Of a stretch of DNA of 64,000 bases, positions 2,878 to 49,800 are shown one piece after another. Position numbers and translations under genes: made by a program. The notes under the pieces were generated by a model, which worked only from the letters and a program-made list of their open reading frames with translations, was not told the origin of the DNA and ran no database searches. This stretch comes from Eledone cirrhosa (Eukaryota), in the NCBI GenBank assembly GCA_964016885.1, contig CAXHJY010001157.1:1-64000 (forward strand), in the 5' to 3' direction. Every line of letters begins with the position of its first letter. The first letter of the stretch is position 1.

Positions 2878-4795
2878 GAATATAGACATAGAATATTCGA
2901 AAATATTCTGTATGTTTATAATAACATTTTGAAGACCTAATCGCTATAGAATAGAATACGTCACGTATTACAATTAGATTCTCGATAAAAGCAAGGGAAG
3001 TAATCTACGCGTTTCATTCTTGTTAGAAATCATCAGGACTACATATCCAGTGCTTTTATCGAGAATGAGACAGCTAGAGACTTATAGAATACTTAGCTGT
3101 GTACAGGAACTGGTTTGAAAGAGCGGTTGCTGGTCCGGCAGAAATTAGAAATTGGAATAAATGCTCTGAAATAGCGATATATATGTGAATATAGACATAG
3201 AATATTCGAAAATATTCTGTATGTTTATAATAAACATTTTGAAGACCTAATCGCTATAGAATAGAATACGTCACGTATTACAATTAGATTCTCGATAAAA
3301 GCAAGGGAAGTAATCTACGCGTTTCATTCTTGTTAGAAATCATCAGGACTACATATCCAGTGCTTTTATCGAGAATGACACAGCTAGAGACTTATAGAAT
3401 ACTTAGCTGTGTACAGGAACTGGTTTGAAAGAGCGGTTGCCGGTCCGGCAGAAATTAGAAATTGGAATAAATGCTCTGAAATAGCGATATATATGTGAAT
3501 ATAGACATAGAATATTCGAAAATATTCTGTATGTTTATAATAAACATTTTGAAGACCTAATCGCTATAGAATAGAATACGTCACGTATTACAATTAGATT
3601 CTCGATAAAAGCAAGGGAAGTAATCTACGCGTTTCATTCTTGTTAGAAATCCTCAGGACTACATATCCAGTGCTTTTATCGAGAATGACACAGCTAGAGA
3701 CATATAGAATACTTAGCTGTGTACAGGAACTGGTTTGAAAGAGCGGTTGCCGGTCCGGCAGAAATTAGAAATTGGAATAAATGCTCTGAAATAGCGATAT
3801 ATATGTGAATATAGACATAGAATATTCGAAAATATTCTGTATGTTTATAATAAACATTTTGAAGACCTAATCGCTATAGAATAGAATACGTCACGTATTA
3901 CAATTAGATTCTCGATAAAAGCAAGGGAAGTAATCTACGCGTTTCATTCTTGTTAGAAATCATCAGGACTACATATCCAGTGCTTTTATCGAGAATGACA
4001 CAGCTAGAGACTTATAGAATACTTAGCTGTGTACAGGAACTGGTTTGAAAGAGCGGTTGCCGGTCCGGCAGAAATTAGAAATTGGAATAAATGCTCTGAA
4101 ATAGCGATATATATGTGAATATAGACATAGAATATTCGAAAATATTCTGTATGTTTATAATAAACATTTTGAAGACCTAATCGCTATAGAATAGAATACG
4201 TCACGTATTACAATTAGATTCTCGATAAAAGCAAGGGAAGTAATCTACGCGTTTCATTCTTGTTAGAAATCATCAGGACTACATATCCAGTGCTTTTATC
4301 GAGAATGACACAGCTAGAGACTTATAGAATACTTAGCTGTGTACAGGAACTGGTTTGAAAGAGCGGTTGCCGGTCCGGCAGAAATTAGAAATTGGAATAA
4401 ATGCTCTGAAATAGCGATATATATGTGAATATAGACATAGAATATTCGAAAATATTCTGTATGTTTATAATAAACATTTTGAAGACCTAATCGCTATAGA
4501 ATAGAATACGTCACGTATTACAATTAGATTCTCGATAAAAGCAAGGGAAGTAATCTACGCGTTTCATTCTTGTTAGAAATCATCAGGACTACATATCCAG
4601 TGCTTTTATCGAGAATGACACAGCTAGAGACTTATAGAATACTTAGCTGTGTACAGGAACTGGTTTGAAAGAGCGGTTGCCGGTCCGGCAGAAATTAGAA
4701 ATTGGAATAAATGCTCTGAAATAGCGATATATATGTGAATATAGACATAGAATATTCGAAAATATTCTGTATGTTTATAATAAACATTTTGAAGA
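2878..4795 (-). repeat. Tandem array of a 310-bp unit (6 full copies + partial), hammerhead-bearing, retrozyme-like
   Basis: Unit start GAATATAGACATAGAATATTCG recurs at 2878, 3187, 3497, 3807, 4117, 4427 and 4737; only a handful of differences seen between copies. Confidence 0.95.
3000..3042 (-). ncRNA. Minimal type I hammerhead ribozyme (repeated at 3310-3352, 3620-3662, 3930-3972, 4240-4282, 4550-4592)
   Basis: Minus strand reads GUAGUC-CUGAUGA-UUUCUAACAAGAAU-GAAA-CGCG-UA-GAUUAC. Stem I GUAGUC/GAUUAC, full CUGANGA and GAAA core, stem II UUCU/AGAA, palindromic stem III ACGCGU, cleavage triplet GUA. Confidence 0.9.
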
Positions 4796-4845
4796 ATGAA
4801 ACGCGTAGATTACTTCTCTTGCTTTTATCGAGAATTTATTCCAAT

Positions 4846-46800: not shown

Positions 46801-49800
46801 CCAAAATTAGTTCTGTCTGACCTGGAATTCCTCACAACAGGACAACTCTAACCCATGCTAGCATGGAAAAAGGGACATTGAACGGTGATGATGATATATA
46901 AATATACACACACACTTATATGTGTATATATATATAATAAAATATGCCTTTAGAATCACTAGATATAATATATACCATTTCCTCTCCCAATTAGCATAAT
47001 TAACCATATAAAAAATCAATTAGACCAAGCTATAAGAATAAAGGATCCTATGAAGAAATCTCCGACAAATAACCGAAAGCAGCCCCTTCGCGGTGGCTAC
47101 AATAGATTATTTATCTAACATTTCGACAGCATGTAAAAATCGACCAGATATACAGTCAACTAAACACAATTAGGTGTAAAATTGAACTTAGAAGAATTGC
47201 GTACATACCTAATTACCTCTACCATGGTTTCATCCGTATTTTAAGACATCCGTTAACAGGGAATGTCCAGAGCTTCGGAATCATCAGAAGCGAACTCAAA
47301 ATTAGACATTTAATTTTCCAAAGTGATCGCGCCAAAAATACATTCAAAAATGGCTAAGAATCGTGACGTGGCAGCGGTCAAGTTAGAAAGGATACATATA
47401 TATATATAGATAGATAGATAGGATATATATATATATATATATATATATATAGATAGATAGATAGATATCGTATTGTATATTTAATAATATGCTGTATGTT
47501 TATTTAAAAACTTTTTGAAGGCCTTTCGCTATGAATTTTAAGGTAGTGACTAACATCACAGACACACATATATATATATATACACATATATGATGAGTGA
47601 GGCACAATAGGGGAGTGAATGGTGAGGAAAGGAGAAGGTATGCAAGTTGGACATGGATGGGGTGAGGGTTATTAAGACTAGGGAGGGGAGGAAATATGAA
47701 GTTGCAGGCCATTGACCTCTACATGTTATTTCATCCTGTGCATATAGGAAGGCAGGTCTTCTATAGTACAGCATAATGTCAGAGAACCCGTTTCTGTGTC
47801 ATCTCCTTTGAGAGATTTAGTTATGCAAAGCCAGCTTTTATCACTTCATTCCAAGTTTTTCTAGGTCATCTTCTTCCGCAACTTCCATCAACTTTGAACA
47901 CATCACATGTCAATACCATTGCAGTCTCCTTTCCTACTCACTGAATCTGACCCCTCTTATGTCCTAGTTTCTCTTTTAGATCACTTATGCTTCATTGTTC
48001 ATGTACATATCGATTGAAGCATGCAGGCTTCATTTCTTTCCAACCTTCGTACATCCTCTGTACACTGAGCCCAGGTCTCATTTCCATGAAACATTGTTGT
48101 TCATACACAAGCATCATAGAATCTGCCTTTCATTTTGAAAGGAAAACCATAAAATACACCCAGAATGATGTTGGTTGGTTGTAGAAGTTGTCGCATTGAT
48201 GATAGTGTCTGTGGTGCTGATGATGGTGGTGGTTGTAGTAGAGATAAAATGTGTGGCAATGAAGAGTTTTGACGATGATGATGACAACATCAACAATGAT
48301 GACACAAAGCTGTTACTCACCGACTAATGAATGCAGTAAGAATGTCTCGTCCAATACTTGGGAAGTAAGCCTGTTGTACACAGTGTTCCAAGACTATTAG
48401 AGTTCCATTCAAATCACCAGGACTTTTATATTTCTTGTCCTCTCCCTTAGAAAATAATAAATAACAATATCAACAACATTTACATGTGGACAACACTGTC
48501 AACAACATTCCCTAACCCTTTTCCTACCAAACTATTCCTTGTTGTATCTATCTAGTTTAGAATAGACTGTAATCTCTGTCATAAAGGACAACAGGAAGGA
48601 CACCCAGCCATAAAACATTCTCAAAAGGGACCACACAATGAGCATGAAGTTGATCATGAGGCTCACAAAGTTATAGTCTGTAATAGCAGGGAAAATGGCT
48701 TTATATAGTATTTGTTCTAGCTCTCCTTAAGCTAGAGACCTGTTCCTTATGCTTGCAACAGAATAGATTCCACTAAAAGCATTCAAAAGCCAGGTGTGAT
48801 GTTATACTGGGCAACAGGTTAAGCCTACCACACTAGTATTCCACAGCGGGATTTGGAAGAAATAACACAAGGCTCTCATAATTTTGCTAATCAACTGAGA
48901 TGGAATAGCATTTTATTTTAATGACTCCTAAAGGATAAAAAAGGGAAAGTCAACCACGGCAGGATTTAAACAGAGAGCTGGAACAAATACTGCTCTGCCA
49001 ATCTGCTGTAGTAACATTGAATACAAAGCATTACAAACAGAACCTGTGAACAGTGGTTGTCTATGAAAAAGTTAACTCTTTTATTACCATATTTCAAATG
49101 AAAGACTGTCTATGGTTTTTAAATAATTTTGAAAATAAATCAAGAATTTGGAGAGATGTAGTAATATAACTATCTTTCTCATTATTTATCTGTTGTTTGG
49201 ACATAAAGGTTTTACATAAAATTATGATGGAATATCTTTAGATATATATATATATATATATACAAGTGAAAGTACAGCATATTCGAAGCTCGAGCCGCAG
49301 CTAAGCCGACGAATGCCTTCAACAGTGCAGCCAAGCACTCGACAAGGTATAAACCTCAGAGTAATAACACAGTTTAAAGGGCTTTGCAAATTGAAGATAG
49401 CGACCGGTAATTCAGCCGTGGGGTCTGTAGCAACGAAAGAACTGACTCGTGAGAAAAAATACATATATATATATAAAGACTTTAAAACAAACAGTTTTGT
49501 ATTGTTGAACCAGGGATAGTTCTCAGAAGGTTTGGTATGAAAAGAGCTAATTCCCTGAACTACTGGCAGCAGCATTAGCTTTGCCCTGTGGTGGTTTATG
49601 AACAGGGTGACTTATTGAATTAGTTACTTGCAGTACATGAAAGGGTTAATTCACTGAGTGATACTTACCTTTAGTAAACCCATGTGGACCAAGAGAGAGT
49701 TTAACAATAATGTTGTGTTTCCCTCTGGGTTGACTTTTAAAACATTGGAAAATAAGGAATCTACAAAGAGAGAAAACGGATCCATCAAATTGGGAATTTA

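Follow-up and report, generated by a model that had tools for sequence, protein, structure and literature searches.

Hammerhead-bearing Penelope-type insertions in TA tracts of the Eledone cirrhosa genome: a putative Hydra-clade element, a Neptune-type end and two non-coding repeats

Penelope-like elements (PLEs) of the Hydra clade have been reported to carry hammerhead ribozymes (HHRs) and to insert into (TA)n, and an octopus member, Hydra-1_Obim from Octopus bimaculoides, is given in the supplement of that report (PMC8557442). The Hydra diagnostics are RWK, DKT, CxCX5C, CxxC and CxH motifs and no CCHH motif; members generally tend to be short (<3 kb) (PMC8557442). Naiads, reported from octopus and squid, have an N-terminal endonuclease (EN), a DKA motif and CCHH, and no canonical HHR (PMC8557442). 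In the published model, retrozymes originate from the pseudo-long terminal repeats (pLTRs) of PLEs and are mobilized by PLEs (bioRxiv 10.64898/2026.07.22.740005; PMC7229834); the means by which animal retrozymes move is at the stage of a proposal. The PLE biochemistry of PMC11167929 concerns a Poseidon element. The window analyzed here is the stretch of 64,000 nucleotides at positions 1 to 64,000 of contig CAXHJY010001157.1 from Eledone cirrhosa. A sequence-only reading of this window had proposed a coding Naiad together with three non-autonomous HHR RNAs that share its TA-repeat niche. It is likely that the four inserts are instead a coding Hydra-clade element (P), the end of a Neptune-type element (B) and two protein-free repeats (A and C), that all were pasted into TA by Penelope-type enzymes, and that C was served by a Hydra-clade enzyme that reads a hairpin. 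The four inserts are located as follows.

22380-29898, minus strand: element P, with an upstream pLTR, an open reading frame (ORF) and a 4.3-kb microsatellite-rich 3′ region.
26682-29123, minus strand: P0001, the intact 813-aa ORF of P, with reverse transcriptase (RT) followed by a C-terminal GIY-YIG domain.
29892-36563, plus strand: inverted 5′-truncated copy of P that ends with a tail; the arms are >98.6% identical.
12071-12487, no single strand: insert B, a head-to-head pair of Neptune-type 3′ ends, left arm tailed and right arm untailed.
2878-4795, minus strand: insert A, a 310-bp tandem retrozyme array of 6.2 units with one minimal type I HHR per unit.
4792-4845, plus strand: inverted 5′-truncated arm of A, with an internal deletion and a tailed 3′ end that runs into TA.
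46929-47395, minus strand: insert C, a single 5′-truncated, untailed copy of a 666-bp retrozyme unit, with the HHR core at 47287.

Element P was assigned by motifs and domain order, rather than by a tree, to the Hydra clade of PLEs, of which it appears to be a very young member. The motifs of P0001 are RWR37, DKT115, YRDD346, CxCx5C673, YIG707, CxxC771 and CxH799. The RT motifs lie at residues 251-349 and YIG at 707, so that the GIY-YIG domain is not N-terminal; DKT is found at 115 and no DKA; neither CX2-5CxxC nor CCHH is present, and the GIY-YIG core contains a single cysteine. The Naiad identity was therefore not upheld: P resembles a Naiad in its (TA)n preference, pLTRs and inverted copies but lacks an N-terminal EN, DKA and CCHH (PMC8557442). 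With the Hydra clade it shares a single ORF with RT followed by GIY-YIG (C-terminal by motif), the RW[KR] and DKT motifs, the CxCx5C linker, CxxC, CxH, the lack of CCHH, an HHR in the pLTR and insertion into (TA)n (PMC8557442). RWR37 is a K-to-R variant and was counted as RWK; among 119 proteins compared, DK[TS] is found in 113 and RW[KR] in 73. The motifs agree by eye with the Hydra rows of the alignment in PMC8557442. P0001 gave no Pfam match and no meaningful match in the PDB, and 118 homologues were obtained at E ≤ 1e-20.

At least 55 copies of P were identified. All scored copies are 99-100% identical in protein sequence, with a stop in 4 of them, and the DNA identity is 99.3-99.9% in 19/19 copies compared. 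The partial tandem arrangement with an inverted copy and a one-sided tail also corresponds to the Hydra clade (PMC8557442). P differs in the length of the unit (6.5-7 kb vs <3 kb, a tendency and not a criterion in PMC8557442; the tandem spacing is 6.5-6.7 kb), in a tail of 135 nt vs the usual 30-40, and in an HHR stem II of 115 nt vs the 7-17 nt spacer of the core search in that source. The outer ends of P (n = 23, from 22 loci) fall at two fixed sites ~135 nt apart, 12 at the short site and 11 at the long site, and all run into TA. A DNA search with the 3′ end of P returned 3 places, common words having probably been skipped, and thus provides no copy count; 20 ends were taken by coordinate. 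The untailed end at 22380 is ~16 nt short of the usual short end of the family. A TA/CA microsatellite of ~2 kb within the 3′ region of P has been copied into both arms (23208-25425 and 33411-35590).

Inserts A and C are classified as non-LTR retrozymes from their non-coding tandem units, type I HHRs and dispersed multicopy occurrence, as described for animals (units of 310 and 666 bp here; PMC7229834; bioRxiv 10.64898/2026.07.22.740005). The longest ATG-initiated ORF is 41 aa in A (doubled unit) and 26 aa in C. The untailed 3′ end of A at 2878 runs into TA. The A family is dispersed, with 147 candidates of which the best 40 were scored; the C family has 3391 candidates (best 40 scored), and the 666-bp period is found in tandem copies elsewhere. 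Genomic copies of both are 93-99% identical to those of the window, and sister families of A and C are found at 66-87% identity. A 15-mer from the tail of A has 24,745 exact matches, compared with 0 for a control. No coding partner of A or C was found by BLAST, in 13 Hydra-like 3′ regions or in 30 loci with the 15-mer of the A guild, and no driver was found for A; these searches covered <0.1% of the 3.0-Gb genome. Relative to described retrozymes, A and C additionally display the full PLE footprint, that is, two fixed ends, back-to-back arms and a TA target, and the stem II of C is 49 nt.

Insert B had also been read as a non-autonomous HHR RNA. This description holds for A and C; B was traced to a coding, autonomous family of its own, one of the outcomes that had been named in advance as refuting the proposal, and for this insert it applies. 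The HHR end of B follows the stop of a Neptune-type EN in 25/25 loci taken, at 92-98% identity, and therefore B is read as a truncated, inverted Neptune-type copy, the clade being assigned from motifs and not from a tree. An RT thumb and a Neptune-type EN lie upstream of B in several loci. A protein search with the Neptune-type sequence gave 29,159 candidates, of which 150 were scored (identity ≥90%), with many open frames of 775 aa. The 775-aa ORF of this family (loci L214 and L215) contains GLKF, DKG, CX4CxxC and a CCHH-type C-terminal EN; Pfam gave a GIY-YIG match, with RVT_1 below the cut-off. By these motifs the family corresponds to the Neptune clade with no notable difference from the features given in PMC8557442, and B is not a non-coding unit without a coding parent. 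In the left arm of B, which bears the ~40-bp tail, a deletion crosses the HHR core. The insert had been called a 12.1-kb foldback; it is real and is located at 12.1 kb, but it is ~410 bp in length. A 577-bp unit guessed for B proved to be wrong. Hydra ORFs beside the B and C loci were considered as partners and rejected, since they look like neighbors in the same TA tract. Among single-arm Neptune copies (loci L053-L071 and L193-L210), 3/16 5′ junctions are TA-adjacent, though most 3′ ends are.

All four inserts contain type I HHR motifs with a palindromic stem III, as had been proposed, and BLAST comparisons among A, B, P and C matched only simple repeats. A descriptor scan located the HHRs of A (six cores, minus strand), B (12336, plus strand) and C (47287, minus strand), with the named palindromes present. 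The C3 positions of the A cores are 3036, 3346, 3656, 3966, 4276 and 4586. The HHR of A is a minimal type I form with stem III ACGCGT; in that of C, stem II is 49 nt long and stem III reads ACCATGGT. The HHR of P has a full core, which is missed by the standard descriptor on account of the 115-nt stem II and required a wider search. The HHRs of B and P are as follows.

12331-12369, plus strand: HHR of B, found by the descriptor, with a 12-nt stem II and stem III AGTACT.
36221-36374, plus strand: HHR of P (core at 36231), with a 10-bp stem I, a 115-nt stem II and stem III ACGATCGT; further cores on the minus strand at 22559 and 29610.

Rfam matched the HHR of A weakly to HH9, at 19.2 bits against a cut-off of 52 bits (E 0.035), and matched no HHR family to those of B and C. 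The predicted fold of stem II of P has an energy of -40.5 kcal/mol and a z of -7.6, and relatives retain versions of 95-101 nt. RNAalifold found 0/50 stem II pairs changed on both sides among 7 sequences; one paired change in stem I was seen by eye. For C, 88% of cells are paired in an alignment of 7 related sequences, a percentage that is not a probability, with 6 pairs showing double changes and slid registers reaching ≤51%. The unconstrained fold of the entire C HHR differs from a hammerhead (z +0.4). A palindromic helix III with action as a dimer is the norm for metazoan HHRs (PMC4209133), so that the shared palindromes do not link the four inserts. The long stem II of these HHRs (49-116 nt) may indicate that the lack of HHRs reported for some clades is partly a descriptor artefact. 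A compensated U3-A8 HHR core, a natural and active variant (PMC3088659), is missed by the CUGANGA descriptor and was observed in several families (47466-47560, L122, L129, L225, L226, L227, L251 and L253); that at L225 lies within a Hydra pLTR. At L220 and L224, HHR-like motifs associated with Hydra elements have a CCGANGA core, with C in place of U4, and both L224 copies have a 95-nt stem II.

Two internal positions per family serve as fixed copy ends, with a separation of ~30 nt in A, 40 nt in B, 107 nt in C and 135 nt in P. Two-armed insertions, in the window represented by A, B and P as had been recognized, combine one tailed and one untailed arm in 30/32 pairs (p about 1e-7): 6/6 for A, 13/15 for B, with both exceptions in one locus, and 11/11 for C. 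The window copy of P follows the same rule. A one-sided tail on inverted pLTRs has been described qualitatively (PMC3846280). In vitro, the RT of PAc, the Poseidon element of Anolis, starts at a pair of internal sites flanking the tail, both strands of the target are cut and extended, a dimer is predicted, and HHR cleavage is not needed (PMC11167929). The two internal starts that define the tail and the use of both strands are as expected for the inserts described here. PAc differs in that its starts lie in an AC-rich stem-loop inside the ORF, with no strand difference in the use of the start sites, whereas the starts here would lie outside the ORF and the arms differ in 30/32 pairs (PMC11167929).

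From these features the following pathway may be proposed. A tandem or circular RNA would be made, in which two HHRs could pair through the palindromic stem III and cleave in dimeric form. An RT-GIY-YIG protein, probably itself a dimer, would cut both strands of the TA tract, by analogy with the PAc biochemistry (PMC11167929). The two fixed ends would mark separate sites at which reverse transcription starts; once the palindromic TA tract is cut, each side of the break would use a different one, which would yield back-to-back arms with one tail. The first start would be found by the Hydra-clade RT through a bulged hairpin, and C and at least 3 other non-coding units that carry this hairpin would be mobilized in trans. 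B would move in cis with its own Neptune family.

The hairpin was found in the tail of P and in tailed copies of the C family, the copy of C in the window being untailed.

36433-36513, plus strand: bulged hairpin in the tail of P, 4 nt past the short copy end; a second copy is on the minus strand from 29408.

C and three further non-coding units of 483, 457 and 558 bp share a tail motif with the predicted fold NYTC-T-[G..C]-ATW-GARN, and the pattern has 2222 matches, compared with 9 for a control. BLAST similarity of C with the other three units is limited to a 53-nt stretch over the hairpin, with the 483-bp unit. In 300 kb of unselected genome the strict descriptor gave 12 matches, vs 0 in each of five shuffles. 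The hairpin lies upstream of the ORF start in 3/4 informative Hydra families, two additional ones being truncated, and in 0/3 Neptune regions (two families). By the strict descriptor it is absent from the A unit, which keeps a similar 3′ strand only, and it is absent from the Neptune 3′ end. In an alignment of 16 representatives it is 96% paired, with G-C/A-U and C-G/U-A swaps. Visual inspection also showed it in three coral and sea-cucumber consensus sequences from the supplement of PMC8557442, namely Hydra-1_Ajap, Hydra-2_Ajap and Hydra-2_Amil, the last with an A-U inner pair; the available portions of that source do not mention it, and no description was found in the literature searched, which excluded subscription journals, Repbase notes and bioRxiv supplements. 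A second hairpin past the long end is weak in the 483- and 457-bp units and absent from the predicted folds of P and C. The three units, at L313 (483 bp), L310 (457 bp) and L279 (558 bp), also contain HHRs with a stem II of ~50 nt. Three ORF remnants were observed among 30 loci with the hairpin pattern.

The presence of the hairpin in C points to Hydra-clade drivers, but not to the family of P, since the genome contains many Hydra families. Assignment of drivers by HHR shape or by tail length was tried and rejected because Hydra-like families vary in both (stem II of 11 to 116 nt; tails of ~66 and 135 nt). An alternative is that the hairpin is a relic, inherited by C and its kin from old Hydra pLTRs, and that these repeats are now moved by any relaxed Penelope-type enzyme. 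Retrozymes have been published as pLTR derivatives (bioRxiv 10.64898/2026.07.22.740005), rotifer pLTR sequences sufficed for the trans mobilization of an unrelated gene (PMC3846280), and the sister families of C reach down to 70% identity. However, paired changes have left the hairpin intact even though C cannot be aligned with any of the three other units outside it, and the distance of the hairpin from the copy end is constant, which suggests continuing selection; we regard the relic as unlikely. As a tentative proposal, which we hold possible though somewhat short of probable, Hydra RTs in corals, sea cucumbers and this genome recognize a conserved hairpin that fixes the start, a guild of retrozymes hijacks this recognition, and a protein dimer gives rise to the one-tail rule. 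If this is correct, the hairpin would be the first sequence code that assigns animal retrozymes to a driver clade, accompanied by a young intact enzyme. Compared with described non-LTR retrozymes, the cis-element here points to one PLE clade. The window combines an intact Hydra protein of 99.5% identity, a candidate recognition hairpin and a non-coding passenger whose ends have been mapped.

Several points weigh against a hairpin-reading Hydra driver of C and against the wider account of the four inserts. P is placed in the Hydra clade by its motifs, and cleavage, circular RNA and trans-mobilization are predictions. PAc shows no strand difference in the use of its start sites, and from this alone the one-tail rule would not be expected. 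Because the copy searches scored the best copies only, young and intact insertions are over-represented in the samples. In the available portions of the source, no hairpin is visible at the displayed ends of Hydra-1_Amil and Hydra-1_Obim, and the informative Hydra family at L284 has none upstream of its ORF. The hairpin representatives were picked by a descriptor that demands pairing, and the covariation is thus partly built in; a relaxed descriptor is not enriched (65 matches vs 67-84 in shuffles). Finally, P and C differ in the inner helix (67 vs 27 nt) and in the tail (135 vs ~107 nt), and therefore P itself need not be the driver of C.

All four inserts abut (TA)n, as had been noted. The window is 28% GC, and 35% of it is alternating-base microsatellite. 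A (TA)4 run begins within ~15 nt downstream of 29% of window positions, compared with 7.7% of the background (30 unselected 10-kb regions), so that TA adjacency inside the window alone proves little. Across the genomic copies, the 3′ ends are TA-adjacent in 23/23 cases for P, 39/39 for C, 23/24 for A and 53/64 for B (83-100%), vs the 7.7% background. The controls included a CR1-like long interspersed element (LINE), which is TA-adjacent in 1/24 cases, and RTE/short interspersed element (SINE) sequences, for which 5/9 matches from two overlapping queries in the unselected regions are TA-adjacent at the 3′ end. A third control was chosen because it sits in a TA tract.

6182-11037, plus strand: APE-RT LINE with a (AAAAGAGT)n end, inserted in a TA tract; no HHR was found in it.

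In the window copy of this LINE the EN frame is separated from the RT frame by one in-frame stop, and the family is young (99%; 1866 candidates; loci L136-L165). It is TA-adjacent at 30/30 3′ ends and 10/11 5′ ends, and thus the TA preference is real but not HHR-specific. The comparison with LINEs therefore supports enrichment of the HHR inserts over background and over the CR1-like element, while the APE-RT LINE is equally TA-adjacent. It is improbable that the TA runs at the 3′ ends were written in part by a telomerase-related RT slipping on its own AU patch, in addition to target choice. Every fixed end falls on an internal TA-like patch, and the 5′ junctions of single-arm copies are TA-adjacent in 3/16 cases for Neptune and 6/15 for C, vs 10/11 for the LINE. 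Against this, TA flanks two-armed insertions on either side, which is what a target would give; Hydra and Naiad elements have been interpreted in the literature as preferring TA (PMC8557442); and several 5′ junctions of C are alignment artefacts inside the preceding tail, the Neptune copies being older.

The HHR descriptor gave 34 matches in 300 kb of unselected genome. After 12 low-complexity matches were dropped, 22 were left in 13/30 regions, compared with 0-5 in shuffles (n = 5). HHR motifs thus exceed shuffles, and the clustering of HHR inserts does not exceed chance: ~16-18 HHR insertions per 300 kb correspond to 3-4 expected per 64 kb, with P(≥4) = 0.44, and four inserts in 64 kb are therefore ordinary in the Eledone cirrhosa genome. 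The system originally envisaged, in which the sole coding element of the window mobilizes all three other HHR inserts, is very improbable. TA targets, a palindromic stem III and the two-ended footprint are common to the four inserts, P is very young, the copies of A and C are 93-99% identical to those of the window, and the hairpin is shared by C and P. However, B belongs to a coding Neptune family, A has no strict hairpin, the co-occurrence of HHR inserts is at chance level, and drivers are abundant, with Hydra-like remnants in 5/30 of the unselected 10-kb regions and other Neptune-like, one Poseidon-like and one possibly Nematis-like element. It was supported that a TA-targeting GIY-YIG/RT element shares this niche with non-coding HHR repeats bearing a Penelope-type insertion footprint; the Naiad identity and the status of B as a parasite were not supported. 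In its original framing, with a Naiad and three parasites occupying a special TA niche, the proposal is for the most part either already known or incorrect, and the biology of the window is mostly known. Of interest are a testable Hydra driver for C-type retrozymes, a quantified one-tail rule and HHRs with a very long stem II.

The Poseidon-like, possibly Nematis-like and further Neptune-like PLEs were observed at L219:1500-5500, L253:5000-8500, L105, L118, L222, L227 and L239; the clade names were assigned from motifs. At least three, and probably four, PLE clades coexist in the genome.

The location of C within an intron, as had been suggested, was supported, and two further features lie in this part of the window.

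43750-48445, minus strand: probable last two exons (~48320-48445 and from 43822) and last intron of a RanGAP1-like gene.
47466-47560, minus strand: fragment D, a 3′ portion of a 333-bp family that is sister to A, older and 66% identical to it.

The last two exons are presumably those of a RanGAP1-like gene, judged from the sequence of RanGAP1. The exon near 48.32 kb ends in a GT donor, and an exon at 55267-55461 matched Pfam RanGAP1_C (E 8e-5, below the cut-off). The RanGAP1-like host gene spans 43750-61300 of the minus strand, with an acidic exon near 61.1 kb. C lies on the sense strand in the probable last intron, and its ribozyme, if active, could cut the RanGAP1-like pre-mRNA. The HHR of the fragment D family has the U3-A8 core and a looped stem III.

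Among the matches listed (150 of 523), a whole-window Rfam scan gave microRNA matches driven by microsatellites. The CR1-like LINE lies at 58373-59524 (minus strand) with an (ATT)n tail, and its further loci are L254-L277. RTE/SINE-type pieces were observed within TA tracts at 13007-13147, 15972-16112, 17168-17323 and 40057-40386, the last with a tRNA-like head as judged by eye. A remnant of a mariner-type transposase helix-turn-helix domain was observed at 41332-41514 on the minus strand (Pfam HTH_48, E 6e-9).

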